64,000 bases of DNA from an uncultured Myxococcales bacterium (GTDB taxonomy: Bacteria > Myxococcota_A > UBA9042 > UBA3505), in the NCBI GenBank assembly GCA_964594295.1, contig CAZQPP010000001.1, forward strand, positions 5,039 through 69,038, written 5' to 3'. A program made the position numbers and the translations under genes. Under the pieces are notes generated by a model. That model made no database searches and was not told the origin of the DNA. It worked only from the letters and a program-made list of their open reading frames with translations. Of the stretch, positions 3,752-36,086 are shown one piece after another (the first letter of the stretch is position 1; every line of letters starts with the position of its first letter).

Positions 3752-4151
3752 TGTGCCTCCTATCCCCGAAAACCTCGGCGGGTGCGGGCAGCCGCGGAGC
3801 CCGGTCGGTCCACTCCTCTGCCGGGAGCGGCGGCGGCTCCTTCGCGAAGGCCTCTATGAGCTCGCGTGGCAGCCTCGCCCTCCAGCCGTCCACCTCCTGC
3901 ACGGAGGGCGCCTCTCGCGACAGCGCGCCGCAGAAGACCTCCAAGACGAGCCTCTGAGGCACCGATCGCAGAGCCCGCCACGCGCCGTGGACCGCCGGGT
4001 CGTTTCGGTCCGATCGGGTCATCTTGAAGCTGGCGTCGAGCACCTCGGTGTTCGAGCTGCTCGGGCCGACGCCGAGCCGCGCGAGGGCGACGAAAGGGTT
4101 GGGACCGTCCCACGGCAGCAGCGGATCGGCGAAGAGCTTCTCGTCGGCCAT
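3741..4151 (-). CDS. Small protein, possible degenerate J-domain-like co-chaperone (HPD replaced by NDP)
   Basis: ORF-track 136 aa. The segment LARLGVGPSSSNTEVLDASFKMTRSDRNDPAVHGAWRALRSVPQR has the spacing of a J-domain (YxxLGV..A..EIKKAYRKLA.KYHPDKN....AYEVLSD..R) but lacks the His-Pro-Asp triad. Its start shares one base with the CHAT gene stop (TGATG at 4149-4153). Confidence 0.35.
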   Translation of the reverse strand: MADEKLFADPLLPWDGPNPFVALARLGVGPSSSNTEVLDASFKMTRSDRNDPAVHGAWRALRSVPQRLVLEVFCGALSREAPSVQEVDGWRARLPRELIEAFAKEPPPLPAEEWTDRAPRLPAPAEVFGDRRHNGD

Positions 4152-21150: not shown

Positions 21151-21255
21151 GGCGTGACGTGCAAGGTGGCCACGCCGGACCCTGCTGGCAGCTCCTCACA
21201 CGGAGCGCACGTCGGAAGCGCTGCAGGACACCTGAGACCGGCCCAACGAGCCGAA

Positions 21256-23901
21256 TCAGCTCCAGGTGGCGGTGAAGACGACCGGAGAGCCTCCCTCGAA
21301 GAGGGCGTTGAGCACCTGGCCGGTCTCCTCGTCGGTCACCCCGGCCAGGATCGCCCCGGTCTCCTCGTCGACGAAGAGGACCTCGAGGTACACGGCGAGC
21401 CCTTCAAGCTCGGCTCGGGTGAGCTGCTTCTGGTCCCCGGTGAGGTCCTCGGTTCCGGTCACCGTGCTCAGGTAGACACGCCTGCCCAGGTGCTCGCGCG
21501 CGAGGCGCTCGTCCTTGCGGCGTGTGAGCGCGAGCAGGAGCAGGCGCAGGGCCTCGGTGACATCGTCCGCCGAGTAGTCCCAGTCGTCGGTGAGCCCGTA
21601 CTCTCGGGCGACCTCCCTCGGCTCGTCGGCCTGCATGACGATCAGGTTCGACCCCGAGAGCGGCGTGGAGCGATCACGCAACGCCTTGATGCACGCCTTT
21701 TTCACGTCGCTGTCAGTCTCGTCCGCGAGCATCTCCAGCAAGCGCGGCACGAACGCGGCGGAGCCGGAGCGGGCCATGGCGTTCACCGCTGCCCGGCGCA
21801 ACGCCCAGTCCGAGTCTCGAGACAGCTCGATGAGGATCGCCAGCGCCTCGCTCGAGTCGCCGGCTCCCGCGTCGATCAGGGCCTGCACCTTGGCTAGAGC
21901 GATGGGGCCGTCATCGTCGTGTGCGATGCGCGCGAGCAGGGCTTGGAGCTTGGGAGCCGGCATCCCGGCCCGGCCCGCCGCGGCCACGAGGCGCGAGCGG
22001 ATCACCTCGTTTCTCGACAGCACCAGCCAGTCGAGGTGCTCGATCTCGTCGAAGGCGAGGTCCCCGCTCAGCAACGCGGCGACCTCGGCCAGGAGCGGGT
22101 CCGTGGGTGCATCGAGCCGCGTCAACGCGCTCGCGGCCGCTCGCCGCGTTCTCTCGCTGCGGCTCTCCAAGAGGGAGGCGATCATCGGCTCCGCGCGGCT
22201 GCGCAGCTTGTGCGAGGACTCGAGAAGGAGCCCCGCGTAGCCCTCCGCGTCCCGCAGCGCGAAGAGCGTCGCCGCCTCGGAGTCGTCCTTGTCGAGCTCG
22301 AGGCCTCCTGGGTCACCAGCCAAGGCCAACCGGGCGTGGAAGCGACCGAGCTGCGTCAACGGTCCGCCAAGGCACTCGAGGTTCAATGCCACGAGCCTGG
22401 CCTCGCCGAGGTCATCGCAGGCGTCGAGCACCAGGTCCAGCGCCGCGCGGCACGCCGAGCCACCCACCAGCCCCGCGAGAACGCAGGCTCGCTCCCACGG
22501 CTCGAGCGCGTCGGTCATGCCGAAGTACACCTCCTTCTGCCGTATCTGCTTGGCAAGGCGTCCGGGATGCGCACGGTAGAAGCGCAGCTCCCGATCCGGA
22601 TCCCCGCTGTGGTGGAGCCGCGACTCCTCGATGTCGGGATCGTCGGTTGCGCCCAGGACCTCGAGGGCCCTTGGCAGCAGCGCCGTCACGGGGTCGTTGT
22701 GTCGGGCGACGGCGCGCACGTCCGGGTGCCTCGCCGCCCCGGCACCTTCTGCGCGAAGGACGCGCACGCAGCGTGCAACACGGGCCACGTCGTCGTCGTC
22801 GTCTTTGAGCAGCTCGTCGAGCTGCTCCTCGAAGGCGTCGAGCGTCAGGCACGCCATGGCGGCCCCTGTGCGAGCGTACCAGGAGGACGCGGAGAAGGTG
22901 CCTCCCAGCCAGGCCGGAGTGTTCTCGGCGAGCGTTGCCGCCGCCGCCACGGCGAGCACCTCGGTGTCCTCGTCCTCCCACTTCGCGAGGCGAGAGCCCA
23001 GCACCGGCGCCGCCCAGCGCTCGTCGGACCAGCAGAGGCGCAGCAGGATCTGCTGGATGACGTCGTCGTCGTCCGAGTCCAGCACCGCCCCGAGCAGGTC
23101 GGGATCGTGAAGGGAGATGATGATCTCGGCCAGCCTCGCGATGGCGGGTGCGCCGAGACACACCTCCTCGACGATCTTCTCAACGGGGCTCGAGATCTCC
23201 GCGCCCGCTCGCGCCGCTCGGAGCAGCAGCTCCGGGCACCCGCCGAGCACCTCGGGGTCCGACTCCGCGGTGACGAGCTCGAGGATCTCCTCATCGGTGA
23301 GCTTGTCCGCGGCGAGGTTCAAGACGGCGTAGGCGCTGCGGCGGACGTATTCGTCCTGGTGGCGTGCGTGGAGCCGCGCCACCTCGAGGGCTCGCTCGGA
23401 CCCTATCATCGCCAGCGCTTCCATGCTCGCCTTGAGCCTCCTCTCGGTGCCGAAGCCGCCTTCGTATCCACAGGCGGTGGCGACTTCGGCGAGCGGCCTC
23501 TCCAGCTCGTGCAGGCCGCAGTCACCCGCGAAACGAAGCACCTCGTAGCGAGGCTGCTCTCCCTCGATGTGCTGCCGCACAGCTTGAACCAGCGCCGATC
23601 GCTCGACGGGCGCCGCCAGGGCCCTAACCGAGCCGGAGAGGGTGTTCTCCGGGACGCCGGCGGCAGCCAGGACCGGCCGGACCTCCGAGTCGAGGCCTAC
23701 CTTGACCTCGAATACCTCGCACCAGCGCATGACCTGCTCGCGCTGGTAGACCCACAACGATGGGGCGGCTTCGGTGGCCTTCTTCTGCTCCGCCCTCCGG
23801 GAGAACTGCTCCAAGAGCGCCAGCTCCTCCTCGGTGAGCGTCGAGAAGCTACCCGCCTCGAGGGCCTTGGCGACGACCTGCCGTGCGTGGCGTTGTTTCA
23901 T
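21256..23901 (-). CDS. HEAT/PBS-lyase-type repeat protein (~882 aa)
   Basis: The ORF track extends to 25164, but the upstream 420 residues are Arg/Pro/Gly frame shadow over the neighbouring gene. ATG 23901-23899 (MKQRHARQVV...) overlaps the upstream stop TGA 23900-23898. Repeats such as RRAAVNAMARSGSAAFVPRLLEMLADETDSDVKKACIKALRD are HEAT-like. Confidence 0.7.
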   Translation of the reverse strand: MKQRHARQVVAKALEAGSFSTLTEEELALLEQFSRRAEQKKATEAAPSLWVYQREQVMRWCEVFEVKVGLDSEVRPVLAAAGVPENTLSGSVRALAAPVERSALVQAVRQHIEGEQPRYEVLRFAGDCGLHELERPLAEVATACGYEGGFGTERRLKASMEALAMIGSERALEVARLHARHQDEYVRRSAYAVLNLAADKLTDEEILELVTAESDPEVLGGCPELLLRAARAGAEISSPVEKIVEEVCLGAPAIARLAEIIISLHDPDLLGAVLDSDDDDVIQQILLRLCWSDERWAAPVLGSRLAKWEDEDTEVLAVAAAATLAENTPAWLGGTFSASSWYARTGAAMACLTLDAFEEQLDELLKDDDDDVARVARCVRVLRAEGAGAARHPDVRAVARHNDPVTALLPRALEVLGATDDPDIEESRLHHSGDPDRELRFYRAHPGRLAKQIRQKEVYFGMTDALEPWERACVLAGLVGGSACRAALDLVLDACDDLGEARLVALNLECLGGPLTQLGRFHARLALAGDPGGLELDKDDSEAATLFALRDAEGYAGLLLESSHKLRSRAEPMIASLLESRSERTRRAAASALTRLDAPTDPLLAEVAALLSGDLAFDEIEHLDWLVLSRNEVIRSRLVAAAGRAGMPAPKLQALLARIAHDDDGPIALAKVQALIDAGAGDSSEALAILIELSRDSDWALRRAAVNAMARSGSAAFVPRLLEMLADETDSDVKKACIKALRDRSTPLSGSNLIVMQADEPREVAREYGLTDDWDYSADDVTEALRLLLLALTRRKDERLAREHLGRRVYLSTVTGTEDLTGDQKQLTRAELEGLAVYLEVLFVDEETGAILAGVTDEETGQVLNALFEGGSPVVFTATWS

Positions 23902-25349
23902 GGGTAGTCCTCCGTCACAATGGTCAGGGTGTCGGTCGCGCAGGAGTTGAGCGGGCTCTCCACCTGCTCGCCGTCGTCGGCGACGAGGTATACGACGAAG
24001 AGGCGCTTGCCGCTCTGCCGGAGCAGGTTGACCGTGCCCGTGCTGACGGGCGCGTAGCCGTCGGTGAAGAGCACGCCGGCCTCGATGTCGTTGGACTGGA
24101 CCAGGTCCACGATGGGAGGATCGAAGTCGGTGCCCCCGCCCCCGCGAATGCGCCCCGCCGCCATCTCCTCCACGTCGACCTCTCGCACGCTGTCGTCGAA
24201 GGCGCGCACCCGCAGCGGCACGTCCCGGAGCTCGTCTATGAAGGCGGCGACGTACTTGTAGTTGCCGGCCATCGATCCGGAGACGTCTACGTAGAATGCC
24301 AGCGCCCGCTTGACACCGGTGTTGTGCACCTCGAGGTTCCAGTACAGGCGAAAGACGTCGCTCACGCCGGCCGCGAGGTAGGCCAGCCCCATGCGGCTCG
24401 GGTACCACGGGAAGGGCTGGACTCGGGAGCGGCGCTGGAAGGGCTCTCGGATCTTGGACGCGGTCTGCCGCACGACGCGGCGGAGGCGGATGCGCCGGAG
24501 GAACTCCTCGACCTTGGAGGTGCCGATGTCGACGAGGGAGACACAGTACTCGCCGAGCGCGCTCCCCGCGTCCGAGCTCCGCGGCAGGCGACCGCGCACG
24601 TCCTCGAGGACCTTGTCGATTGCCTTTGCCACGAGGGGCGGGGGTGTCCGCGGCATGCCGGGTGGATAGCGCGGGACATCGGGCGCGGAGTGGGGGGTGC
24701 CCCAGCCACCGTGCTCGCCGTCCTCGCCGTCCCCTCCGCCGCCCCCGCCCTGCAGCCTCAAGAGCTGGTAATAAAGGGCCGAGGGGTTCAGGCGGCTCAT
24801 GTCTCCGTCGACGCCCCGATCCCAGATCTGGTGCCACAGCGCGCGCTGCTCCGCCGGGAGCTTGGACGCCTCCGCCGCGCAGTTTGCGAGGTCGATGATC
24901 GTCCCGGCGGACTCCTCCTCGTAGACCTCCTTGCTGAGCTCCCGCATGCGCTCGGGCCAGGCCTCGAAGAGGAGCCGGTTGATGCAGACGTCCAGGGTGA
25001 CGTTCGCCAGCGAGTGGTTCGTGAAGCGCTCGCCGAAGCCGTGGAACATGGAGCGGTGCAGGAGCTCGTGGCGCAGGACCATCTCGATGTTGTCCACGCT
25101 CATGGCGCAGATTGCCGGACCCACGTGGATGGACTCGGCCCCCGTGCCGCGGTGGTGTCTCCACGACGCGCTCTCCTCCTCGGGATCGTACTCGACGAGG
25201 CCCGCGGCCTCCACGAAGGTGGCGCCGAGGCGCATGGCGGCCTGGCGCAGCTTCTGCTCCGCGACCAGGCGCTCCAGCGTCGGGGGCTCGCCGGCAGCCA
25301 CGTCAGCCGAGCTCCAGGGAGCCGAAGTAGCGCAGGATCGTCTCGTCAT
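23898..25349 (-). CDS. vWA-domain protein with an N-terminal HExxH metallopeptidase-like domain (DUF2201-like), partner of the MoxR ATPase
   Basis: ORF-track 483 aa. HELLH in VLRHELLHRSMFHGFGE. MIDAS in LAFYVDVSGSMAG. A poly-Gly/Asp linker lies between the two domains. The ATG at 25349 overlaps the MoxR gene by 47 bp; an alternative GTG at ~25300 would leave a 2-bp spacer. Confidence 0.8.
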   Translation of the reverse strand: MTRRSCATSAPWSSADVAAGEPPTLERLVAEQKLRQAAMRLGATFVEAAGLVEYDPEEESASWRHHRGTGAESIHVGPAICAMSVDNIEMVLRHELLHRSMFHGFGERFTNHSLANVTLDVCINRLLFEAWPERMRELSKEVYEEESAGTIIDLANCAAEASKLPAEQRALWHQIWDRGVDGDMSRLNPSALYYQLLRLQGGGGGGDGEDGEHGGWGTPHSAPDVPRYPPGMPRTPPPLVAKAIDKVLEDVRGRLPRSSDAGSALGEYCVSLVDIGTSKVEEFLRRIRLRRVVRQTASKIREPFQRRSRVQPFPWYPSRMGLAYLAAGVSDVFRLYWNLEVHNTGVKRALAFYVDVSGSMAGNYKYVAAFIDELRDVPLRVRAFDDSVREVDVEEMAAGRIRGGGGTDFDPPIVDLVQSNDIEAGVLFTDGYAPVSTGTVNLLRQSGKRLFVVYLVADDGEQVESPLNSCATDTLTIVTEDYP

Positions 25350-26736
25350 CTGCGGGCACGTCGCCCTCCCAGAGATCGATCAGCCATGCCTTCAACGCGT
25401 TCACGGCCGGCCGCTTGTCGGCGAGCAGGGTGCCGTCGGAGACCATGCCCTGGTAGCGCTTGATGTTCCGCAGCGCCCTGTCGTGGGTCTTGTCCTTGGG
25501 GCACTGGCTCACCACCTTGGCCAGCTTGGGAGCGGCGAAGTTGATGGCCTTGTGGAGCGTGCCCACGAGGTGGCCGTCTACCTGGCGCAGCGCGTCCCCC
25601 GTGTAGCCCAGCTCGTCGAGGAGGCGCCGGAGGTCCACGAGCTTCTCACGCTCCCCCTTTGCCGAGGCTCCCCTCAGGAGCTGGCCGACGACCTTCTCCA
25701 CCTCGTCGACGGCCAGCTCTTTTCGCATCGAGCCCCAGTGCCTCCGGACATATGCGACGCGCTCCTCGAAGGTCGTCAGCCCGCCCAGCTCGACGCGCAG
25801 CTTCTCGCTCGCCGCGAGCTCGCCCGTTCTCAGGAGCTTGGCGGCCGAGCGGTGCAGCCCGTCGAGCAGGGCGGGCTTGATCTGGAGCTTCGTAGCGATC
25901 CCGTATCTCAACGCCGGCACGGCGCCCCGCGAGAGCGCGTCGGCGCTCCCCTCGACCCGGTACCAGGCGGCGACGGCCATGATGAGCTCGGGCAGGTTGC
26001 GGGCATAGGTCCGCGGGCTCAGGTAGGGCCCGTTCTGCTCCTGCAGCACCCGCAACAGGCCCGGCACGAGGTGAGCCACGTAGCGCACCACGGCCTCCCG
26101 CGCGCCCTCCTCGACGAGCGCGGCGTGGGCCTGCTGGATCTCCACGAAGGCCCGCGCGATGCTGGCGTCCTCCACCCCGCTGTCGCCGCCGAGGGCGAGC
26201 TCGGCCATGGCCTGCACGTCGGCGCTGCTCACCCCTTCTTGCATCTCCGGCACGGGCATCACGGCGTAGAAACGATCGAGGAGCGCCTCGTCCAGCTGGA
26301 AGGCCGCCGCGTAGGACTCCGGGTTCGCGGTGGCCACCAGGGTCCGGTAGGAGAGCGGCAGGCCGAAGCAGGTGTGCTCCTCCAAGATCTCCAGCCACAG
26401 GTTCTGGCTCTCCTTGCCGGCGCGTGTGATCTCGTCGACCACGATGGTGTCCTTGTCCCAGATGCTGCGCTGGTGGTGCACGAAGGCCAGCCGACCGGCG
26501 CGGATAGCCTCGGGATCGGGGATGCCGGCGATGGAGACCAGGTCGTCCTTCGTCGCGTCGTAGAATACGAAGCCCTGCTGGCCGTATCCCCGGGAGAGCT
26601 CGCGCGCCAGCCGCGTCTTCCCCGTGCCGTGGCGGCCGATGAGCATGAAGCTCTTGTTCATGGCCATCAGGCCGACGATCACGGGCTCGATCTCGCGGTA
26701 GCCGTGGTTGATGCGATCCAGCAAACCGATTGACAT
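25303..26736 (-). CDS. MoxR-family AAA+ ATPase
   Basis: ORF-track 477 aa. Walker A MLIGRHGTGKTRLA. Walker B TIVVDEITRA. TLVATANP sensor-1 region. Confidence 0.85.
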   Translation of the reverse strand: MSIGLLDRINHGYREIEPVIVGLMAMNKSFMLIGRHGTGKTRLARELSRGYGQQGFVFYDATKDDLVSIAGIPDPEAIRAGRLAFVHHQRSIWDKDTIVVDEITRAGKESQNLWLEILEEHTCFGLPLSYRTLVATANPESYAAAFQLDEALLDRFYAVMPVPEMQEGVSSADVQAMAELALGGDSGVEDASIARAFVEIQQAHAALVEEGAREAVVRYVAHLVPGLLRVLQEQNGPYLSPRTYARNLPELIMAVAAWYRVEGSADALSRGAVPALRYGIATKLQIKPALLDGLHRSAAKLLRTGELAASEKLRVELGGLTTFEERVAYVRRHWGSMRKELAVDEVEKVVGQLLRGASAKGEREKLVDLRRLLDELGYTGDALRQVDGHLVGTLHKAINFAAPKLAKVVSQCPKDKTHDRALRNIKRYQGMVSDGTLLADKRPAVNALKAWLIDLWEGDVPADDETILRYFGSLELG

Positions 26737-26805: not shown

Positions 26806-29800
26806 CTAGATCTGCTCCGGGGCCTGCTCGTCGAGGGGCGCCGCGACCGACTGAAGCTCGCGTGCCAGATCTGCGGCCGACGCGAAGCGCTGCTCGGGCT
26901 CCTTGGCAAGGCACTTGCGGATCAGCTTGTCGAGCTCCGCGGGCACCTCCGCCCGCTCGCGGCGCGGGCTCGGGACTGGATCCCTGGCGTGCGCCATCCC
27001 GGAGGCGAGCGCCGTCTCCTTGCGGAAGGGAGCGCTCCCCGTCAGGAGCTCGAAGAGCACGACGCCGAGGGAGTAGATGTCCGAGCGCGCTGTGGGCTCC
27101 TTCCCTTCGAACTGCTCGGGGCTCATGTACTCCGGAGTGCCGACTGCCATGCCGGTCATGGTCAGGGTGATGCTCTCCCTCGATCGGGCTATGCCGAAGT
27201 CGGTCAGCTTGACCCGGCCGCCTTCGAAGAGGAGGAGGTTCGCCGGCTTGATGTCGCGGTGGAGGATCTCCGCCGCGTGGACCGCCGACAGGGCGTCGCA
27301 GACCTGGCCCCCGATGTCGAGCACCTGCTCTACGTCAAGGGGCAGGGGAAGCTCGCTGGCGTCGAGGGCGACCCGATCGCCGCCGGCGGGCCAGCCGGTG
27401 GCCCGCTCCATGACGATGTAGAGGTCGACCAGGGTGTCTCCCGAGCCGAGCACGCGGGTGATGCTCGGGTGATCGAGGTCCCTGGCGTTGCTCGTTTCGA
27501 GGAGGAAGCGCTCGACCATCGAGTGGTCACCGAGGTAGCGGTAGGGCAGGAGCTTGAGGGCCAGCGCCGCCGCGTCCCCACCTGCCTCCTCGTCCTTCAC
27601 CTCGTAGATGTCGGCCATGCCGCCGCTGCGGAGGTGAGCCAGCACGCGGTAGCGCTTGTCGATCAGGACTCCCGGCTCGAGGCGCTCTCGTGCAGAGGCG
27701 CCGTCGACACGCAGCAGCCTGGCCTTGCGGCGGCGCAGCTCGGGACGGCGAAGCTCCGTCGCGAGCTCGGCGCGCCCTTCCTCGAGCTTGAAGCTGTGGG
27801 ACACGGGCTTGTCGTCGTCATCATCGATGACCGGCGATCCCGCGATCCCGCGGTACTCCATGCGGCGGGAGCTCACCTTCCGAAGCACGAAGAGGTGTGC
27901 CTTGTGACAGTCCGGGCAGTCGCGGTGCACGTAGAAGGGGTGGAGGTCCAAGACCTCCCCCTTTGCCGGGCTGACGCAGTAGACGTGCTGCGCGCTCAGC
28001 TCGAGGTCCGACTGGACCACGGAGTGCTCGGCGGTGCCGTGGAAGCCCATGAGGAGCCGGCAGCTGTGTTTCCGCAGCCCGTGCTCAGCGCTGGCGTGGT
28101 CCACCGCGACGAGGGGGTAGTCCTTGAGGAAGGCGACGCTCTGCAGGAGGCGCAGGACCGCGGTCTTGAAGTCCTTCAGCTCGGCTGGGGTTGGCGGTGT
28201 GCCTTCGCGACGTTTCAGCAGGTCGTTTCGCTGCTCGACCAGGGCGTCGATTGACTTCAAGAGGTGTCGTGATCTCTCGCCGTACAGCTCGGAGAGGAAG
28301 GCCTCCCCGTGACCGGCCGTGGTCTTGAGGGCGTCGCGCAGCAGCCCCGTCCAGTCGCCCAGGCTCGGTGGTTTCTTGAGTCGCTCCAGGAGTGGGCCTG
28401 CCGTGGCGGAGGAGACGGCGATGGCATCGCTGAAGGCCAGCACGGCCAGGTGCCGCACCGTGCAGCTCAGCAGGTCCGCGAGCTGGCTCAAGCGAGCGCC
28501 GCTCCGAGCCCCTTCGCGAAGGCCGTAGCACGCCCGGGCGACGGGGTGCGGGAAGCGGTGCTCTACGGCGTTGAGCAGCAGGGCCGAGGGGATCTCGGCG
28601 CTGGAAGGAGGCGACGCGGCGGCTGGTGCCGGAGTCGCCGCGGTCGTCGCCGGCATCATGCGCTTCATGAGTTCGGCCGTCGCCGGGGCCGAGGTCACCG
28701 AGAAGATCACGACGAGCGAGGCGTCTCGCCGCGCCGCGATCTCCATGACCGCGTCGAACATCACCCCGGCCGCCTCGCGGGGGTGGATTCCGCCGGCTCG
28801 GGCCGCGAGCAGCGGCAGCGCCACGCTGGTCCAGCCGCGCTCCGTCGCTTCCTCGAGGCATCGCCGCACGACCTCGCGGAGGATCTCGGTGTCGGGCGGC
28901 CTGCCGGTGAGATCGTCGATCACCCCGGCGTGGATGACGTGCCGGGCCGGTAAGCGCCCTGCCGCGGTTACGCTGACGCCGCCGTGCTCCAGCGGACCGC
29001 TACACGAGGCCTCCCGGTCGATCTCCGCGCCACCGCGGCGCTGGATGGCGCCGTGTACGCTGCGGGACGGGGCCTCGCGGACCCGAAGGCTGCGGCTGCG
29101 GGAGACCGCGATCGCGTCGACGGACAGGGAGCAGATGTCCGCGGTGGTGAGCTTGACGAGGCACTCCCCGAGGGCGACCTCGGCGTCGGACTCGATGTCT
29201 CGCGGGTCGGGGCGTGGTGGGCCGTCGTGAGCGCCGGGAGGTGCGGCCTCCGCAGACGAGGGCGCCTGTTCACGCTCCCAGCGCTCTCGGGCTTCCGGCC
29301 CGATTTCCGGCAGCCCCGGTCCGGGAGCGCCGAAGACGCCCTTGGGCTCCCAGCGGTGGTCGATGTGGAGAGGGTGGATCGCGTGTCCGGCCTGGGCCTG
29401 CTCGATCTGGCGCCGGTAGTCTGCCGCCATCGGACCGACGACCTCCCGGAATGCCCATGCAGTCAGGCAGGCGCGGTTCTGGATGAAGGTGAGGCGGTCC
29501 TCGAAGGGCCAGCCGAAGACGACGTCAAAGCCGGCGCGTTGCGCGTCGGCCAGGGTCTCCAAGCTCTCGACCGGCACGGTGGGAACCGCCAGGAGACGGA
29601 GATCGATCGAGCCACCCTCGCTCGCGACCGTGCTTCGGCCCAGGTCGGCAAGAGGCTCGGATAGGTCGATGGCGCGTTGCACACTCTTGCCCAGTGGCTC
29701 TTTGGAGCTGCCTGCGTCGGGAGATCCGAAGGTCCCCGCGATGCCGATCTTGGGTTCCTTGGCGATTGCTTCGAGTGGGTCCAGCGACAGGATGCGTTGG

Positions 29801-31824
29801 TCGATCGCGGGAGAAGCCCTTGCAACGAGCCAGTCCAGGACCGGGTTCAGATCATGTGGATGAATAGGACGCTTTCCGTCGACGGTGAGCTCGGGACGCC
29901 AAAGCAGATCCTTCAGCGGCGACTCCGTTACAGCCCCGTGGGCCAGCTCCTCGAGAGAGCAGGAGCCTTCGTCTGTCACTGGCTCTATGAACACGTCTCG
30001 AGCACGTCGCCAATCGCGTTGGATTGAGGTCGCCTCCTTGCATGAGCGCAAGAGCGTATCTGCGGCAATCACGGTGGCCTTTCCGGTGGTCCGCAGCTTC
30101 GCCAGACACCCCCTGCACTCCTCTGTCAGGGCGCTGAGCACCTGTGGTTTGGCGGAAGCGATCAGCACAGGAACAGCCTCTTCAGCGAGCTGCACGAGGC
30201 GCTCCATAGCAGTGGCCTTGGCAGCTTCAAGACCCAGCGTGCGAAAGAAGAAGAGGCCGCCGGCGGAGGATGCCAGCTTCTCTTCGAGGTCTGTTGTCAG
30301 CTTCCATGGCTCGTTCATGAGGGTGGGCCGAGCCATGACGACAGAGGCCTCGTCCGCCCAGGATGACATGCGTGTCAAGAGAGCAAGAATCGACTCACGC
30401 CAGTCGAGAGGGTGAAGCTCACAGTCGCGCCAGAGCCGCTCGAAGAAATCGTCCCGGCGGATCTCGTCCACAAATGCGGACGTCGACCTTGCGATAGGCC
30501 GCTGTGTTGCAACGAGCCGGTCCCTGACTGTGGCCACGATTGGCCGTAGCTCGGGAGCGCGATGCGACAGGGCGGACACGCTGGCTCGAATAGCGTCGCG
30601 GTCAACCGCCGCCAGAGCTACCCGCTCCAATTCTCCTTCATGGTCCCGCAACATGCTCAGAATTCGCTCTGCGAGCCTCCCCGAGCTGCCGCGGGGCGCC
30701 ACTTCCGCACCTGTCCACGCACTGCCGAGCATCTCGAGTGTGCGCGCGGCGACCTCGTCCGCGCAAAGGCTCACAAAACGCTCTCGTTGCCGCACCCGTA
30801 TTGCCGAGACCCCCGCCGTCTCGTATCGCCTGGGTGACAGACCTGGGGCTGGCACTGCGATGTGGGGCAACTGGTTTGACTTCCAAGCGGCAAACCTCCC
30901 GGCGAGGGGGTCGATGCTGGATGCCAGGGCGATCTCCGCCGCTGCCCGGAGGTTTTGCGTGGTCGTTGCAGCGTGACCTCCGAGCAGGCAAACGCTCTCG
31001 AATGGGGCGTTGCTTGCCTTGTCTTCCCCGGGCCTCCCGTGGGGATCGAAAACGAGCGGCATCGACGGCCGGCCGCCGGCGCCCGCGGTGTGCGGGATGG
31101 CCATGAAGGCGTCGATCTCCTTCAAGGCGGCGTAGGCGTTCGAGTTGAGGTGGCCGTGGTCGGAGATCTCCCTGAACGCCGAGGGCAGGAGGAGAAGGGC
31201 CTCGAGCCGGGGGGGCTTTCCGGAGAGTCGCTGCCACAGCGACCGGACCAGGTATGCCGCCGGCAGCAGGATGGCGCCACCCGTCTCGCCGCACAAGGAG
31301 GCAGCGAAGAGCAAGCGATACGGCGCCGTCGAGTCACGTGAAGCCGCCGCAGTTGAGAGGCGGTCGTACTCGGCGCGCAGTACCTCGCGGAAGCCGCTGT
31401 TTTCGGCAAGATGACAGTAGAAGCGCAGGCGGCTCAGGAGTCGCGAGCCGCCTGCGCCCTTTTGTAGCTGCCTCGAAGTGGACAACAACTCCGAGTAGGA
31501 GGGACCGAGCCAGGACCCCAACCGAGCGTCGTCGGCGCGACGCTCCAGCTTCTCGTAGTTGTCTGCCTGCCGGGCAAGGTCGCGCCCTGTCATCCCAACG
31601 GTCTGCACCGGCTCGGCCAGCGGCTCCGCGGGCTCCCAGAAGTCGGCGCACACGAACCCGACCCGAGCGCGGATGTCCTCCCAACGCGTTGACTCTTGGA
31701 GGCGGCGAGCGACCGTGTCGACGATCCGCGTCCCGGCCCCGCCGAGGCCGATGAAGATGGTCGGCCTCGCGGCCAATGCCGGCCCTAACCGGTGACCACG
31801 GCCCCGGAGGGCGTGGTCTCGCAA
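26806..31824 (-). CDS. Giant multidomain protein: N-terminal tubulin/FtsZ-like GTPase-like domain (tentative), macro (ADP-ribose-binding) domain, degenerate HEPN-like helical domain, and C-terminal active Ser/Thr protein kinase
   Basis: ORF-track 1672 aa. The N-terminus PTIFIGLGGAGTRIVD is GxGGxG T1-loop-like, and CGETGGA is T4-like. The macro segment reads VDAIAVSRS...SVHGAIQRRGG...AGRLPARHVIHAGV...SVALPLLAARAGGIHP. The segment LLKSIDALVEQRNDLLKRREG...FLKDYPLV is paralogous to the HEPN-like N-termini of the 10995 and 36147 proteins, but His is replaced by Lys. The kinase carries HRDIKPANLL, DFG and GTPEYMSPE. Confidence 0.8.
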   Translation of the reverse strand: MRDHALRGRGHRLGPALAARPTIFIGLGGAGTRIVDTVARRLQESTRWEDIRARVGFVCADFWEPAEPLAEPVQTVGMTGRDLARQADNYEKLERRADDARLGSWLGPSYSELLSTSRQLQKGAGGSRLLSRLRFYCHLAENSGFREVLRAEYDRLSTAAASRDSTAPYRLLFAASLCGETGGAILLPAAYLVRSLWQRLSGKPPRLEALLLLPSAFREISDHGHLNSNAYAALKEIDAFMAIPHTAGAGGRPSMPLVFDPHGRPGEDKASNAPFESVCLLGGHAATTTQNLRAAAEIALASSIDPLAGRFAAWKSNQLPHIAVPAPGLSPRRYETAGVSAIRVRQRERFVSLCADEVAARTLEMLGSAWTGAEVAPRGSSGRLAERILSMLRDHEGELERVALAAVDRDAIRASVSALSHRAPELRPIVATVRDRLVATQRPIARSTSAFVDEIRRDDFFERLWRDCELHPLDWRESILALLTRMSSWADEASVVMARPTLMNEPWKLTTDLEEKLASSAGGLFFFRTLGLEAAKATAMERLVQLAEEAVPVLIASAKPQVLSALTEECRGCLAKLRTTGKATVIAADTLLRSCKEATSIQRDWRRARDVFIEPVTDEGSCSLEELAHGAVTESPLKDLLWRPELTVDGKRPIHPHDLNPVLDWLVARASPAIDQRILSLDPLEAIAKEPKIGIAGTFGSPDAGSSKEPLGKSVQRAIDLSEPLADLGRSTVASEGGSIDLRLLAVPTVPVESLETLADAQRAGFDVVFGWPFEDRLTFIQNRACLTAWAFREVVGPMAADYRRQIEQAQAGHAIHPLHIDHRWEPKGVFGAPGPGLPEIGPEARERWEREQAPSSAEAAPPGAHDGPPRPDPRDIESDAEVALGECLVKLTTADICSLSVDAIAVSRSRSLRVREAPSRSVHGAIQRRGGAEIDREASCSGPLEHGGVSVTAAGRLPARHVIHAGVIDDLTGRPPDTEILREVVRRCLEEATERGWTSVALPLLAARAGGIHPREAAGVMFDAVMEIAARRDASLVVIFSVTSAPATAELMKRMMPATTAATPAPAAASPPSSAEIPSALLLNAVEHRFPHPVARACYGLREGARSGARLSQLADLLSCTVRHLAVLAFSDAIAVSSATAGPLLERLKKPPSLGDWTGLLRDALKTTAGHGEAFLSELYGERSRHLLKSIDALVEQRNDLLKRREGTPPTPAELKDFKTAVLRLLQSVAFLKDYPLVAVDHASAEHGLRKHSCRLLMGFHGTAEHSVVQSDLELSAQHVYCVSPAKGEVLDLHPFYVHRDCPDCHKAHLFVLRKVSSRRMEYRGIAGSPVIDDDDDKPVSHSFKLEEGRAELATELRRPELRRRKARLLRVDGASARERLEPGVLIDKRYRVLAHLRSGGMADIYEVKDEEAGGDAAALALKLLPYRYLGDHSMVERFLLETSNARDLDHPSITRVLGSGDTLVDLYIVMERATGWPAGGDRVALDASELPLPLDVEQVLDIGGQVCDALSAVHAAEILHRDIKPANLLLFEGGRVKLTDFGIARSRESITLTMTGMAVGTPEYMSPEQFEGKEPTARSDIYSLGVVLFELLTGSAPFRKETALASGMAHARDPVPSPRRERAEVPAELDKLIRKCLAKEPEQRFASAADLARELQSVAAPLDEQAPEQI

Positions 31825-32042: not shown

Positions 32043-35000
32043 ATGAGCGAGCTGGCCGAGCGGTCGCTGTCGATCTTCTTGAGCTACGGGCACGACGAGA
32101 GAGCCGCCGACGCGCTGGAGATCAAGGCCGACCTCGAGGCTCGCGGGCACACGGTGTGGTTCGACCTCGAGAGGCTTCGGGCCGGCCGTGACTGGGCGGG
32201 GTACATCGAGGAGGGGCTCGACGCCTGCGACCTCGTGGTGCTGCTGATGACGCCGCACTCCGTCAGGCGGCGCGAGCGCTCGGAGCCCCACTCCACGGAC
32301 GGCTTCTGCCTGAACGAGCTCGCCAGGGCCCTCGAGCGAAACAAGACGGTCATCCCGGTGATGCTGGCCTGGGTCGACCGGGGGCCGCCGCTCGCCATCA
32401 GCCGCGTCCAGTACCTCGACCTCACCGACTGCGTGCCCATCGACCGGGAAGACGAGCGTTATCGTCGCCGCTTCGCCCGCCTCGTCGACGCCGTCGAGCA
32501 CGGCAACCTCGACATGGGAGGGGCGCAGGCCCGCCTGCAGCGCTACCTGCGGCCGCTGGACTTCAGCCAGGACATGGCCCCGCACATCGCCGGCTTCCGC
32601 GGCCGCAGGTGGGTAGATGCCCTCGTCGACGAGTGGCTCGACGAGCGCCCGGACTCCCAGCTCCTCTGGATCGCGGGTGGGCCGGGCCTCGGCAAGACGG
32701 CCCTGGCCACGCACCTCCAGCGCCGCCACGACGCCGCGGCCTGCCACTTCTGTGTCTTCGGCCACGAGGACAAGGCGAACGCGCGCCGAGCGGTGCTCTC
32801 CATCGCCTACCAGCTCGCGGCAGCCTTCCCGGAGTACTTCGAGAGCCTGAAGGCGGTCCCTCTCGAGGAGGAGCACCTCAAGAACGCGCACACGCTCTTC
32901 GACAACCTGCTGGTGACGCCGCTGCGCCGGATCGAGGCGCCCGATGGGGGGGGGCTGGTGATCCTCGACGCCCTCGACGAGGCCGCATCGGGGGCCCGCA
33001 ACGAGCTTGCAGAGCTCGTGGCATCCGGGTGGCGCCGCCTGCCGTCCTGGCTTCGCCTCATCGTGACGAGCAGGCCCGAGCCGGAGCTGCTGCGGCGCAT
33101 GGGAGGCCTCCGGCGGCCGGTGGAGCTCGTCGGGGAGGATCCGCGCAACCTCGAGGACCTGCGCGAGCTTGTCGTGGCGAACCTTGAGGAGTCGGGCTTG
33201 GACGCGCCTCCCGAGACGGTGGCCCGCATCGTCGAGCACAGCGGCGGCATGTTCCTCTACGCGGTGCAGGTCTTGGAGGAGATCCGCGATGGCGAGATCT
33301 CCGTGCACGAGCCGGAGTCCTTTCCCCGTGGGCTCGAAGGGTACTACGGGCGCTTCTTCGAGCGCCGATTCGCGGATGCGCGAGGATACGACGAGGAGAG
33401 CCGCCCGCTCCTCGAGGCGGTGGTCGCGAGGAGAGCGCCGCTTCCCCTCGGCCTGCTCGCCGAAACCCTCGATGTGCCGCTCTTCGAGCTGTCACGCAGG
33501 CTGCGACAATGCGGCTCGCTCTTCCCGCCGCGGCGGAGCGGTGAGGAGGAGCGGGACTGGACGGTGGAGCCCTTCCACAAGTCGGTTGTGGACTGGCTGA
33601 CCAGCAGCGACGAGCACGGCTACCACCGCGCCGGCGACTTCGCGGTCGACGTCGAGGCGGGCCGGCGTCGGCTCGCAGAGGCGTGCGAGGGGTGGGGGCG
33701 TTTGGAGGGTGCGGCGCGGTGCTACGCCCTGGCGCACGGTGTGCGGCACCAGCTCGAAGCAGGTCGTCTCGAGCAGGCCGCGGAGGCGCTTTGTGACTTC
33801 GGCTGTCACCACCACCGGGTCGAGGCCGGCGGAGCGGACGCGGTGACCGAGACCGTCGGCGACTTCATTCGCACAGAAGAGGCGGCGGCGAAGGCCCGTT
33901 GGGTTGGGCCCCACTGGGACTTGCTCCAAGAGTGGCAGGCCTTCTACAGGGAGCGCTCCCACAGGGCACGCCGGCACGAGAGGCCGGAGCTGGGACTGCT
34001 GCAGGCGGCCTACGCACACGCAGAGCGGAGCCACGTCAGCCGAAGCGCGGAGGGCTGGCTTGCGAAGTGGGGCCCGAGCGCCTCCTGGCTTCGCGCCGTT
34101 CGCAGGCCCCCCGAGGCGCGCGCCAGTGCCTGCCTGATGACGCTCCCGGTTGACGCCGCCTCCGTCGCGCTGGACTCGGCGGGCAAGCGGGCGCTCTCGG
34201 GGGGCTTCGACGGGGTCGTGAAGCTATGGGACCTGGAGACGGGCGCGTGCCTGCTCGCTCTCGAGGGACACACGGAACAGGTGATCGCCGTCGCCTTTCG
34301 GGGAGAGGGCGAAGTGGCGTTGTCGGTGAGCCTGGACGGCACTATCGGGCTCTGGAACCTCGCCTCGGGCACCTGCCTGCAAACCGTCGCCTGGGAGGCG
34401 CGCAGTGCGATCGCTGCCACGACCGACACGGAGGGCGGGCTGGTCTTCTCGGCACATCAGGAGCGGGACGAGCCCGGAAGCTGCGAGACGACCTTGAAGC
34501 TCTGGGAGCTGGAGACCGGCGCCTGCCTGCACACGATGGAGGGGCACGCGGATGCTGTGGATGCCCTCGCGGCGATCCCTCCGCGCGGCCGAGCCGTCTC
34601 GGGTGGCTGGGACGGGAAGCTCAAGCTCTGGGACCTTGAGAGCGGCAACTGCCTCCGCGTCTTGGAGAGCTATGCCCACATGGTGACGTCGGTCGCGGTC
34701 GATCCTTCGGGCCGGTGGGCCGTCTCCGGCAACGATTCCGGAGGATTGGAGCTCTGGGACCTGGAGACGGGAGCTTGTTCGGGCATCTTGGAGAAGCACG
34801 ACTTCTTCGTGGCTGCCGTCGCGTTCGCGCGCACCGGCCAGCGGGTGTTCTCGGTTGACTACCATGGGACGATCAAGGCGTGGGATCTCGAGACCGGCGA
34901 ATGCCTCCGCACCATCGACGGCGACGGGCAATGGTTCCACGGAGGCAGCGGTGTGCCCGTCGCCGCCCTGGACCCGGAAAACCGGCGGGCCGTTACGGGG

Positions 35001-36086
35001 ATCGGCGGAAGGACTCTGAAGGTCTGGGACCTCGAGACGGCCGCACACGCGCCGAGCAGAACGGAGCACGCGGAAGCGGTGTACGCACTTGCTGTCGACG
35101 CCGAGCGAGGGAGGGCTGTCAGCGGGAGCGCCGACCACTCGCTGAAGCTCTGGGATCTCGAGAGCGGTGACTGCTTGAGCACCCTTCGTGGCGTCTACGG
35201 AGCCGGGATCCTGCGGACGCCTTTGGCGTTCGACGCAGCGAGGGGGCGTGTTGTCACCGAGGACGGCCCTCTTGACGGTACGCTTGGGCTCTGGAGCACC
35301 CGGTCAGGCACGCTTCTGCGCACCCTTGAGGAGCACACGGGCCCTGCCAACGACATCGTCTTGCTCGACGAAGGCAAGCGGGCGCTCTCGGCGGGCGGCG
35401 AGACCCTGGAGGTCTGGGATCTTCGGAGCGGTGAGCGCCTGCGCACCCTCGTCGGGCACAGGGCCAGGGTCACCGTCGTCGAGCCGTGGAAGGAGGGCCG
35501 TCGAGCGATCTCGGGAAGCGAGGACGACTCGCTCCGGGTCTGGGACGTGGAGATCGGCGAGTGCCTGCGCACCCTCGAGGGGCACACCGCCTCGGTGACC
35601 GCCCTCGCGTTGTGCCGGCAGGACCGGTGCGCCCTCTCCGGGAGCAGCGACGGCACGCTCAGGCTGTGGGAGCTGGAGACGGGTGACTGCCTGCACGTCC
35701 TCGAAGGGCACACGAGCGGCGTGAACGCCCTGGCCGCCGACCCCACCGGCCGCGTCGCCCTCACGGCCCGCCGCCACGGGGCCATGAGGCAGTGGGACCA
35801 GCGCGCGGGCGCTTGCCTCCGCCTCCTCGAGGGGCACGAGGACTGGGTCAAAGCGGTCGCCCTGGCCCCGGGGGCAGGGCGCGCGGTCTCGGGGAGCACG
35901 GACAACACCTTGAAGGTCTGGGACCTTCACACGGGCGAGTGCCTCGCCACCTGGGTCGCAGAAGGTGCAGTGTTGTGCTGCGCGTGGCCTCCTGGCCGCA
36001 TCGTCGCCGGAACGGGCGCCGGCGAGGTCCTGATCCTCCGGCTCACCGATGCCGGCCCGTGGCGTCCGCGGCCACGAGGCGCGTGA
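32043..36086 (+). CDS. TIR-NACHT(STAND)-WD40 protein
   Basis: ORF-track 1347 aa. AGGAGG lies 3 nt before the ATG. TIR-like N-terminus (SIFLSYGHDE...VVLLMTPHS). NACHT Walker A LWIAGGPGLGKTAL and Walker B GGLVILDALDEA. At least 14 WD40 repeats (GH...WD motifs) follow to the C-terminus. Confidence 0.9.
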   Translation: MSELAERSLSIFLSYGHDERAADALEIKADLEARGHTVWFDLERLRAGRDWAGYIEEGLDACDLVVLLMTPHSVRRRERSEPHSTDGFCLNELARALERNKTVIPVMLAWVDRGPPLAISRVQYLDLTDCVPIDREDERYRRRFARLVDAVEHGNLDMGGAQARLQRYLRPLDFSQDMAPHIAGFRGRRWVDALVDEWLDERPDSQLLWIAGGPGLGKTALATHLQRRHDAAACHFCVFGHEDKANARRAVLSIAYQLAAAFPEYFESLKAVPLEEEHLKNAHTLFDNLLVTPLRRIEAPDGGGLVILDALDEAASGARNELAELVASGWRRLPSWLRLIVTSRPEPELLRRMGGLRRPVELVGEDPRNLEDLRELVVANLEESGLDAPPETVARIVEHSGGMFLYAVQVLEEIRDGEISVHEPESFPRGLEGYYGRFFERRFADARGYDEESRPLLEAVVARRAPLPLGLLAETLDVPLFELSRRLRQCGSLFPPRRSGEEERDWTVEPFHKSVVDWLTSSDEHGYHRAGDFAVDVEAGRRRLAEACEGWGRLEGAARCYALAHGVRHQLEAGRLEQAAEALCDFGCHHHRVEAGGADAVTETVGDFIRTEEAAAKARWVGPHWDLLQEWQAFYRERSHRARRHERPELGLLQAAYAHAERSHVSRSAEGWLAKWGPSASWLRAVRRPPEARASACLMTLPVDAASVALDSAGKRALSGGFDGVVKLWDLETGACLLALEGHTEQVIAVAFRGEGEVALSVSLDGTIGLWNLASGTCLQTVAWEARSAIAATTDTEGGLVFSAHQERDEPGSCETTLKLWELETGACLHTMEGHADAVDALAAIPPRGRAVSGGWDGKLKLWDLESGNCLRVLESYAHMVTSVAVDPSGRWAVSGNDSGGLELWDLETGACSGILEKHDFFVAAVAFARTGQRVFSVDYHGTIKAWDLETGECLRTIDGDGQWFHGGSGVPVAALDPENRRAVTGIGGRTLKVWDLETAAHAPSRTEHAEAVYALAVDAERGRAVSGSADHSLKLWDLESGDCLSTLRGVYGAGILRTPLAFDAARGRVVTEDGPLDGTLGLWSTRSGTLLRTLEEHTGPANDIVLLDEGKRALSAGGETLEVWDLRSGERLRTLVGHRARVTVVEPWKEGRRAISGSEDDSLRVWDVEIGECLRTLEGHTASVTALALCRQDRCALSGSSDGTLRLWELETGDCLHVLEGHTSGVNALAADPTGRVALTARRHGAMRQWDQRAGACLRLLEGHEDWVKAVALAPGAGRAVSGSTDNTLKVWDLHTGECLATWVAEGAVLCCAWPPGRIVAGTGAGEVLILRLTDAGPWRPRPRGA
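33900..36086 (+). repeat. Duplicated ~2-kb module (helical linker plus WD40 array), copy 1; paralogous to 38040-39911
   Basis: Protein segments WQAFYRERSHRARRHERPELGLLQAAYAHAERS...ACLMTL and ...ECLATWVAEGAVLCCAW...GEVLILRLT are mirrored in the second protein (WRSFFQVNAHKMRIHERPEIGLLQAAYAHAEQS...ACLMTL, ...ECLATWVAEHAVLCCAW...GEVLILELT). The nucleotide sequences are visibly similar, e.g. ctgctgcaggcggcctacgc. Confidence 0.6.

Follow-up and report, generated by a model that had tools for sequence, protein, structure and literature searches.

A bacterial fusion of tubulin-like, macro, HEPN-like and kinase domains as a candidate assembly-activated signalling effector

We analysed a 64,000-nucleotide stretch of DNA (the window) from an uncultured Myxococcales bacterium (assembly GCA_964594295.1, contig CAZQPP010000001.1, positions 5,039 to 69,038 of the forward strand). 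One gene on its minus strand encodes a large protein, referred to below as the target, in which a tubulin/FtsZ-like domain, a macro domain, a HEPN-like domain and a Ser/Thr kinase are joined. The first-pass annotation of this DNA had named these four domains with the HEPN-like one as degenerate, and all four calls held. Comparison with relatives suggested a tubulin-based platform with exchangeable effector modules, and we tentatively interpret the target as an effector that is activated by assembly.

The gene and its product

The features of the gene are given below, with residues numbered from the first TTG of the maximal open reading frame (ORF).

26806..31776, minus strand: gene of the multidomain protein, probable TTG start at 31776, stop codon at 26806-26808; the maximal ORF extends to 31824
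30742..31758, minus strand: FtsZl1 / Tubulin_2 domain with the tubulin/FtsZ fold, residues 23-361 (Pfam)
31717..31764, minus strand: T1-type nucleotide loop, PTIFIGLGGAGTRIVD, with GxGxxG intact (alignment of 9 family members)
31273..31293, minus strand: T4-type signature loop in the variant form CGETGGA (same alignment)
29215..30741, minus strand: extension of ~500 residues, 362-870 (Pfam, comparison with the relative L009)
28690..29160, minus strand: divergent macro domain, residues ~889-1045 (Pfam, alignment to TTHA0132)
27802..28578, minus strand: domain X, residues 1083-1341, a HEPN-like bundle (~1083-1238) and a beta-rich subdomain (~1238-1327) with CxxC (structure model)
28210..28230, minus strand: RNDLLKR, a degenerate RNxxxH(G) motif with His replaced by Lys (27-sequence alignment, model, HEPN topology)
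26845..27666, minus strand: Hanks-type Ser/Thr kinase, PknB/StkP-like, residues 1387-1660 (Pfam, NCBIfam, alignments)

The maximal ORF (26806..31824, minus strand) comprises 1672 codons from the first TTG and has no internal stop. The GC content of the window is high throughout (66-73%), and long spurious ORFs are frequent in high-GC DNA. Even in DNA of 69% GC, however, this ORF lies far beyond chance and is a real gene. A single frame holds PTIFIGLGGAGTRIVD (residues 21-36), CGETGGA (178-184), SVHGAIQRRGG (922-932), LPARHVIHAGV (958-968), HRDIKPANLL (1522-1531), DFG (1542-1544) and TPEYMSPE (1563-1570), exactly as the first-pass annotation had listed the ORF and its motifs. The Pfam matches were Tubulin_2 (PF13809; residues 23-361, 1.8e-30), Macro (PF01661; 921-1022, 2.2e-16) and Pkinase (PF00069; 1393-1648, 1.8e-38).

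In the public protein collection, we found an identical protein of 1656 amino acids (NCBI assembly), a near-identical 1656-residue copy (JGI metagenome) and a fragment of 1081 residues (ENA). The 1656-residue copies begin at residue 17, which is the TTG at 31776, and AGGG, resembling a ribosome-binding site, lies ~8 nt 5' of that codon. Because the public copies have this N-terminus, the likely start is 31776 rather than 31824 and the likely product has 1656 residues; the ORF of 1672 codons stands, but not the size and start first given for the protein. No transmembrane segment was predicted, and the maximum Kyte-Doolittle mean over 19 residues in the whole protein was 1.48, on which basis membrane anchoring was rejected. 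The target is one real cytoplasmic protein of five parts.

Domains of the target

The N-terminal domain scored 106.8 bits with Tubulin_2 (cut-off 27) and covered profile positions 1-353 of 356, so that the curated threshold of FtsZl1 / Tubulin_2 was passed over nearly the whole domain. The domain has the tubulin/FtsZ GTPase fold and did not turn out to be a non-GTPase Rossmann fold, so that the tubulin-like call, at first tentative, holds. The Pfam family PF13809 corresponds to FtsZl1 as described by Makarova and Koonin in 2010 (PMC2875224). FtsZl1 proteins have a long C-terminal extension consisting of a coiled coil and a helical domain (PMC2875224), and in four planctomycete members a protein kinase is found at the N-terminus (PMC2875224; also PMC9871819). 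Their operons typically contain vWA, kinase, GTPase and OmpA genes, which has been read as a sign of membrane remodelling (PMC2875224). In an alignment of nine family members, G10, G12 and G15 of the T1 loop GLGGAG were invariant. The signature loop read [AGMC]GGTG[SG]G in most relatives and was wholly lost in the relative P0037; in L009, a metagenomic relative described below, it was canonical (AGGTGSG). The loops associated with GTP binding in this family are a glycine-rich T1 and a T4 of the form GGGTG(S/T)G.

The ~500-residue extension that follows sits where FtsZl1 proteins carry their long C-terminal region. Pfam gave no match and no recognisable family for residues 362-870. The sole match of the extension was a weak one (domain E 9e-4), between residues 758-856 and the C-terminal part (849-937) of the FtsZl1 protein P0002. 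In L009, the extension is equal in length and the macro domain lies at the same position. A word-index search with residues 362-880 returned nothing, its own cluster included, and is hence an unreliable negative.

The macro domain belongs to PF01661 (60.3 bits, cut-off 22). Its closest solved relative was TTHA0132 from Thermus (2dx6; 2.4e-17), followed by macroH2A (1.5e-09) and the macro domains of PARP14/15. A residue-level alignment to TTHA0132 showed that the adenine-contacting Asp is retained (VDAIAV). It is the only canonical contact of ADP-ribose-binding or -hydrolysing macro domains that is kept: NAAN is replaced by VSRS, Gly-rich loop 1 by RSL, a four-residue insertion and SVHGAIQ, and loop 2, GTGVGG (GTGxGG), by AARAGG, where the subfamily consensus is GTRAGG. 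The macro domain assigned in the first pass was confirmed, whereas the Asn and both Gly-rich loops expected of a ligand-binding domain were not found. In an alignment of five subfamily members (target, P0017, P0022, L009 and L010), the replacements formed a signature of their own, namely AIVCSR[SD]RSL, seven residues, SVHGAIQR.GG and GTRAGG in loop 2. Because the five members share it, the replacements are not random decay, and the domain is under selection. Sensing of ADP-ribose by this domain is possible but cannot be assumed from the residues it keeps. Some macroH2A isoforms also do not bind ADP-ribose.

Domain X was searched exhaustively with HMMER, using residues 1075-1390 against 1.84 billion cluster representatives (50% identity), and 293 proteins were found at E<=1e-3, 18 of them at E<=1e-30. 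It occurs at varied positions in proteins of varied lengths and, because both vary so widely, is a genuine mobile domain. Its partners comprise cNMP-binding, macro, receiver, TIR, N6-MTase plus S subunit and PCMT domains, as well as co-occurring DUF4145. Ten X-domain sequences had no Pfam match at E<=10, so the family is one without a Pfam model. A PDB sequence search with domain X gave no relative, and hhalign of domain X against one DUF4145 sequence gave a probability of 0.2.

An AlphaFold model of domain X, built on a 27-sequence alignment, was confident (predicted local distance difference test, pLDDT, 88.8; predicted template modelling score, pTM, 0.89). It contained helices at model positions 3-13, 16-27, 31-60, 62-71, 78-93, 106-126 and 136-152, followed at 161-249 by an eight-stranded beta subdomain that bears the CxxC. 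In the alignment, the family consensus had Ex3R in helix 31-60 and, where helix 106-126 ends at its C-terminus, RNxxxHG with a near-invariant Arg. HEPN domains are characterized by Rx4-6H where helix 3 ends and by their helical core topology, and some HEPN families use alternative residues (Anantharaman et al., PMC3710099). The superfamily core consists of four helices running up and down, with helices 2 and 3 separated by an insert; a polar residue follows the Arg of the motif, and helix 2 bears an acidic residue (Ex3[KR]). Because the motif geometry in the model matches the HEPN positions, and the partner domains also fit, "degenerate HEPN-like" is the best available description of domain X. 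The HEPN-like call of the first pass is thereby supported, with the caveat that no profile-level link to a named HEPN family was obtained from Pfam, PDB or hhalign.

The HEPN motifs are present in the family consensus and in both paralogues encoded in the window. In the target, they read SCTVR and RNDLLKR, so that neither the acidic residue nor the His remains and the HEPN motif is not intact; the K-R replacement for His is common to its whole clade of kinase-fused X domains. At the profile positions, R...H was present in 85 of 159 X domains (57 of the 99 without a kinase and 28 of the 60 with one), and additional X sequences outside this count have RNxxx[KR]GHG, a motif of the Rx6H type. Because the acidic residue and the catalytic His were lost, domain X of the target is predicted to be catalytically inactive and is not expected to cut RNA.

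Other X proteins showed further arrangements. P0054, P0052, P0123, P0060, P0065 and P0027 represent cNMP-binding-X, N6_Mtase + Methylase_S-X, PCMT-X and DUF4145 with X. A receiver domain together with X at the C-terminus is seen in P0161 (601 residues) and P0162-P0165. The X of P0161 harbours a TIR domain within the variable insert that separates core helices 2 and 3, and has RDSELGHG (Rx5H) as its motif. P0051, P0072, P0075, P0081 and P0106 (~560 residues, bacterial) have the kinase before X, as in Ire1 and RNase L, and P0051 keeps RN..HG.

The kinase aligned end to end with StkP (1.7e-46) and PknB (1.8e-43). Every catalytic motif of a Hanks-type Ser/Thr kinase is present, namely the GGMADIY loop, K1424, the alphaC Glu (E in RFLLE), HRDIKPAN from 1522, DFG at 1542-1544 and SPE, and the activation loop is Thr-rich. 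The domain is thus probably an active kinase, as first proposed. NCBIfam PknB_PASTA_kin matched the kinase part alone (8.7e-78; 262.7 bits, cut-off 450), MAD6 scored 157 bits (cut-off 460) and PglW 56.5 (cut-off 990), and the kinase also aligned with the PADLOC models PD-T4-6 and mad6. Membership in PD-T4-6, MADS, BREX PglW or the lanthipeptide synthetases was rejected, since all these NCBIfam and PADLOC matches cover the kinase domain only.

Relatives and gene neighbourhood

The full target was aligned to the best 150 proteins with domain X. For dozens of them, one unbroken alignment spans target residues ~1067-1665, so that X plus kinase is one conserved two-domain module; many of these proteins carry WD40 repeats after the kinase. 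The following architectures were found.

P0022 (1646 residues) and P0017 (1543 residues): Tubulin_2-Macro-X-kinase, the full target architecture
P0019 (no macro) and P0037 (macro remnant): Tubulin_2-X-kinase
P0021 (2092 residues): X-kinase-Tubulin_2, the reverse order
P0077 and P0146: Macro-X without kinase
L009, 94-3720, plus strand, metagenomic: Tubulin_2 (2.3e-52)-Macro (2.2e-16)-TIR_2 (4.5e-12), 1208 residues
L010, 96-974, plus strand, metagenomic: fragment with Macro-TIR_2

The target architecture therefore recurs in two other 50%-identity clusters, both metagenomic, and the independent proteins that have it show 36-41% identity in the macro-X region. A word-index search with residues 1-1383 had returned only the target's own cluster and, over the first 320 residues, FtsZl1 proteins; the singleton architecture that this implied was overturned by the exhaustive HMMER search with X. 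The macro domain of L009 is 46% identical to that of the target (1e-49; positions 874-1077 against 871-1073). The FtsZl1 domain, the ~500-residue extension and the special macro domain thus form a conserved chassis, the C-terminal module of which is either TIR or X-kinase. TIR in place of HEPN-kinase suggests, from these architectures, a tubulin-based platform with swappable immune-type effectors. P0077 and P0146 have canonical macro loops and an intact RNxxxH. An alignment of macro plus X against genome contigs found only an unrelated stand-alone macro gene of 194 residues in an Ardenticatena metagenome-assembled genome, and a scan of viral contigs found no relatives.

The genes around the target were as follows.

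32043..36086, plus strand: TIR-NACHT(NPHP3_N)-WD40 protein, divergent neighbour (TIR_2 4.2e-21, NPHP3_N 3.5e-23, WD40)
36147-39911, plus strand: X-kinase-WD40 paralogue, 1254 residues, following the TIR-NACHT-WD40 gene (Pfam, alignment)
25303-26736, minus strand: AAA_5/MoxR-like protein, 477 residues (Pfam)
23898-25301, minus strand: protein of 467 residues with a weak match to VWA-like DUF2201 (E 1.5e-3; gene calls of contig L008)
21256-23901, minus strand: HEAT_2 protein, 881 residues (gene calls of L008, Pfam)
18178-21150, minus strand: AAA_5 protein, 990 residues (Pfam)
16313-18181, minus strand: vWA/CobT_C protein, 622 residues (Pfam)

The five downstream genes (16313..26736, minus strand) are co-directional and separated by gaps of 69-138 nt or overlapping, so that an operon with the target is possible; between most of the genes the gap is 69 nt or less or there is an overlap. 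An apparent ORF of 1302 residues (21256-25164, minus strand) consists of two overlapping genes according to gene calls on L008, the near-identical JGI contig. A scan for promoters and terminators gave nothing above chance, and no terminator-like site was found in the downstream gaps. The TIR-NACHT-WD40 gene lies ~270 bp from the probable start of the target. Its adjacency is retained only in L008, which has the same neighbours.

In the 36147-39911 paralogue, an N-terminal X (RNEDAHG and Dx3R intact) is followed by a kinase and WD40 repeats. Residues 14-559 are 27% identical to target residues 1086-1650 (3e-26), and the WD40 parts of this paralogue and of its TIR-NACHT-WD40 neighbour share ~41% identity. 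The product looks like a bacterial HEPN-kinase-repeat protein with the layout of RNase L reversed.

A third X domain of the window (RNTWSHD, Ex3R) is encoded at 10995-13400 (minus strand), together with a weak or degenerate kinase (Pkinase 2.4e-07). On the same strand and 3' of it lie 8050-11403 and 4151-8053 (~1117 and ~1300 residues), which had no Pfam or NCBIfam match, and the gene of an HSP70-family protein of 722 residues (1156-3324). The genes at 1156-13400 possibly make up a conflict system of their own that includes HSP70, similar to those of Kaur et al. (PMC7159879). Farther from the target are a HEAT protein of 1742 residues (43081-48309, minus strand), the C-terminus of which resembles the 16313-18181 vWA protein (30% over 160 residues, 4.5e-4), a PHP plus DNA polymerase III alpha-type protein of only 842 residues (48342-50870, plus strand) and a HerA/TrwB/STAND-like NTPase with weak matches (51506-53998, plus strand).

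Neighbours were compared by BLASTP for the first three related loci and by all-against-all phmmer for L001-L003, L005-L007 and the window. The MoxR/vWA/HEAT genes and the TIR-NACHT gene were rejected as demonstrable components of a system with the target, as no partner was shared at the six related loci. Pfam and NCBIfam scans of the neighbours found no GTPase domain. L002 has NACHT-like genes on both sides (weak matches). In L003 (8560-18540, minus strand), the P0037 gene adjoins an operon in which OmpA and a second Tubulin_2 gene occur together with several unknown proteins, a classical FtsZl1 neighbourhood. Kinase, FHA and PP2C genes adjoin the FtsZl1 gene in L005, and a vWA gene lies directly 5' of it in L006. 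The gene context fits the FtsZl1-vWA theme as well as a conflict island.

Interpretation and comparison with known systems

Induced proximity or oligomerisation is what turns on TIR NADases, HEPN nucleases and those RD kinases that have threonines in their activation loop. Since all of these effectors are activated by proximity, the tubulin-like chassis may be their common activator. We tentatively read the target as an effector, activated by assembly, that belongs to a conflict or stress-signalling system and has a tubulin-like platform and a kinase output, and hold this reading to be somewhat short of an even chance. The platform would self-associate, perhaps depending on nucleotide and perhaps under the influence of a ligand or modified protein that the macro domain reads. 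Its assembly would gather the C-terminal modules, and the kinases would trans-autophosphorylate their Thr-rich activation loops and then phosphorylate targets. HEPN domains function as dimers, and the dead HEPN domain may for this reason mediate dimerisation and regulation. The downstream MoxR-like AAA+ and vWA-like genes may help assembly. FtsZl1 and kinases are linked by separate sources, namely kinase genes in FtsZl1 operons, the planctomycete fusions and the neighbours in L005. The reading also agrees with the earlier proposal that tubulin homologues act as STAND-like assembly modules in conflict systems (PMC7159879), and it is favoured by the domain identities, the recurrence of the architecture, the TIR ending of L009 and L010, the HEPN-effector-like partners of X, the loss of E and H in the clade of the target and the lack of a transmembrane segment.

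Several points weigh against this interpretation. To our knowledge, there has been no experiment on any FtsZl1 protein, and polymerisation has never been demonstrated. GTP binding by the target is doubtful because its signature loop carries Glu in place of Gly, alone among the nine aligned sequences, and the family IDT[DN] motif is ADFW. The structure model of the N-terminal domain was only moderate (pLDDT 62). The T6-H7 filament-contact elements could not be aligned in FtsZl1, and the family is possibly non-polymerising (PMC2875224). Effector swapping is known from two metagenomic contigs only, L009 and L010. No homologous neighbour is shared among the six related loci and the window, and nothing beyond the domain repertoire and the local context ties the gene to a defence island.

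A bolder form of the interpretation is a tubulin-based immune platform made of the FtsZl1 domain, the extension and the macro domain. Polymerisation of the tubulin-like domain would be triggered by an infection cue, possibly in the form of an ADP-ribose-related ligand or ADP-ribosylated protein that the specialised macro domain reads, and would switch on the fused effector. In L009, this would activate a TIR NADase; in the target, it would activate the kinase, with the HEPN domain recycled as a dimerisation element. We consider this proposal unlikely as it stands. If it were true, a cytoskeletal polymer would offer a route to the assembly signalling that is otherwise known from STAND/NLR and TIR systems, and the macro and dead HEPN domains would be the fossil of an ADP-ribose-gated RNase effector of the Macro-X type (e.g., P0077).

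An alternative that is also unlikely, but deserves to be weighed before the others, is a housekeeping machine of the cytoskeleton or of membrane remodelling, which would act on the envelope or on vesicles together with vWA and AAA+ partners. Its kinase would regulate it or tie it to development or the cell cycle, in a socially living bacterium rich in kinases. The vWA, kinase, GTPase and OmpA genes typical of FtsZl1 operons have been read in this way (PMC2875224), vWA-like and MoxR-like genes lie 3' of the target, P0037 stands beside the OmpA-containing operon with a second Tubulin_2 gene, and L006 has its vWA gene directly 5' of FtsZl1. The target, however, has no membrane segments, and the neighbours are not conserved. 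Moreover, the exchange of TIR for kinase on the chassis and the macro and HEPN-type company are hallmarks of conflict systems, and the distribution is sparse, with high divergence even within one architecture and a middle region that cannot be aligned.

The first-pass annotation had proposed that ADP-ribose sensing, perhaps of products of the neighbouring TIR-NACHT gene, is coupled to kinase output. Here a macro ligand, such as a TIR-made nucleotide, would switch the kinase, and the tubulin-like part would be a scaffold. The divergent TIR-NACHT-WD40 gene ~270 bp upstream, the fusion of the same macro subfamily to TIR in L009 and L010, the retained adenine-contacting Asp and the Macro-X proteins P0077 and P0146, which with their canonical loops and intact RNxxxH look like ligand-activated HEPN effectors, all favour such a sensor kinase. 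However, the NAAN Asn and both Gly-rich ribose-phosphate loops are replaced across the subfamily, and P0019 and P0037 keep Tubulin_2-X-kinase with no macro domain or a remnant of one. The TIR/STAND adjacency is absent in L001, L003 and the P0019 contig, and the neighbouring TIR-NACHT-WD40 protein is a complete STAND protein, equipped with sensor repeats of its own and in no need of a partner. Coupling to that gene thus found no support in a conserved neighbourhood, whereas a link to NAD+ or ADP-ribose stays alive through the chassis-TIR fusions; we judge the sensor kinase on balance to be rather improbable.

Still less probable is an enzyme like RNase L or Ire1 with the order reversed, in which X binds and perhaps cleaves RNA through the Lys-Arg after RN and the kinase is a dimerisation switch controlled by nucleotide. 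The pairing of kinase and HEPN follows the logic of Ire1 and RNase L, and some HEPN families use alternative residues (PMC3710099). In addition, bacterial kinase-X proteins and X-kinase proteins with an intact RNxxxH exist (e.g., 36147-39911), and the K-R pair is conserved in the clade of the target. However, in the target the acidic residue of Ex3R is lost and so is the His, and its kinase, in contrast to the RNase L pseudokinase, has all catalytic residues and an activation loop that can be phosphorylated. An artefact (chimeric assembly, run-through of adjacent genes or a decaying pseudogene) can be set aside almost entirely: high GC eases long chance ORFs and the signature loop, macro and HEPN motifs are degenerate, but copies come from three independent sources (NCBI, JGI and the ENA fragment) with identical neighbours in L008, all domains lie in one frame with strong Pfam scores, and independent proteins with 36-41% identity in macro-X share the whole architecture.

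As far as we know, FtsZl1 is among the most divergent branches of tubulin/FtsZ and has no experimentally known function ~15 years after its description. A chassis with TIR in one lineage and with a kinase and a HEPN relic in another points to a role in conflict. This interpretation is directly testable because kinase autophosphorylation or NAD+ cleavage would give an easy read-out of tubulin-like assembly. The search with X also defined a sizeable domain family, comprising 293 clusters at 50% identity and lacking a Pfam model, with partners like those of HEPN effectors. Bacterial kinase-HEPN proteins occur in it in both domain orders, which is relevant to how the Ire1 / RNase L design arose.

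Already known are the FtsZl1 family and its links to kinases and vWA proteins, and likewise the occurrence of tubulin homologues in conflict systems. In the open-access literature, we found no description of the Tubulin_2-Macro-X-kinase combination or its Tubulin_2-Macro-TIR relatives, of macro or HEPN-like domains on FtsZl1 proteins, or of domain X. The first-pass annotation, which knew of no description of this combination, was thus borne out as to the literature, although the architecture is not unique. Compared with the FtsZl1 family, including the planctomycete kinase-FtsZl1 fusions, the N-terminal domain of the target is a clear member, and a long extension comes after it. Companion genes for kinases and vWA proteins are typical of the family and a kinase fusion is already on record (PMC2875224), but the kinase is N-terminal in the published fusions and C-terminal in the target, where macro and HEPN-like domains accompany it. 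P0021 has the kinase before Tubulin_2 as in the published fusions, but X precedes its kinase. The signature loop is GETGGA in the target as opposed to GGTGSG in FtsZl1.

The macro domain has the fold and the adenine-contacting Asp in common with TTHA0132 and macroH2A, whereas their catalytic or ribose-contacting Asn and both Gly-rich loops give way to the signature of its subfamily. The likeness of the kinase to PknB / StkP, PD-T4-6 and MAD6 runs end to end but is limited to target residues ~1385-1670 and lies below all NCBIfam whole-protein cut-offs; the target has neither PASTA domains nor the other parts of the named kinase systems.

Ire1, RNase L and the target each have a protein kinase fold and a HEPN-type domain in one polypeptide, and dimerisation or oligomerisation is the expected activation logic (PMC3710099). 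In Ire1 and RNase L, however, the kinase precedes a KEN (HEPN) RNase with an intact active site, whereas the target has the reverse order and no such site. Its HEPN domain is dead and its kinase apparently fully active, which reverses the situation in RNase L; the proteins are unrelated in sequence beyond the superfamily level, and the target adds the beta subdomain with CxxC.

Two kinds of conflict system have been described, GAP1-N2 systems that contain tubulin and combine a DO-GTPase with GAP1, and ternary MoxR-vWA systems with VMAP/iSTAND as the further component (Kaur, Burroughs, Iyer and Aravind 2020, PMC7159879), and the tubulin homologues were proposed to be NTP-dependent assembly modules analogous to STAND NTPases (PMC7159879). 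The systems occur in kinase-rich "multicellular" bacteria (PMC7159879). Tubulin-superfamily proteins, MoxR-like AAA+, vWA, kinases, TIR and macro domains are found together in those systems as well as at the target. No DO-GTPase, GAP1, VMAP or iSTAND was recognised near the target, and VMAP, iSTAND and GAP1 may lack models in the libraries used. The tubulin of the Kaur et al. systems is a separate gene or, rarely, a vWA-fused effector, whereas in the target it is fused to effectors. Although its core is a tubulin/FtsZ-fold domain rather than a STAND P-loop NTPase and it has no repeat-type sensor domain, the target would share with NLR/STAND immune proteins the principle of a nucleotide-dependent oligomerising core that carries interchangeable, proximity-activated effectors.

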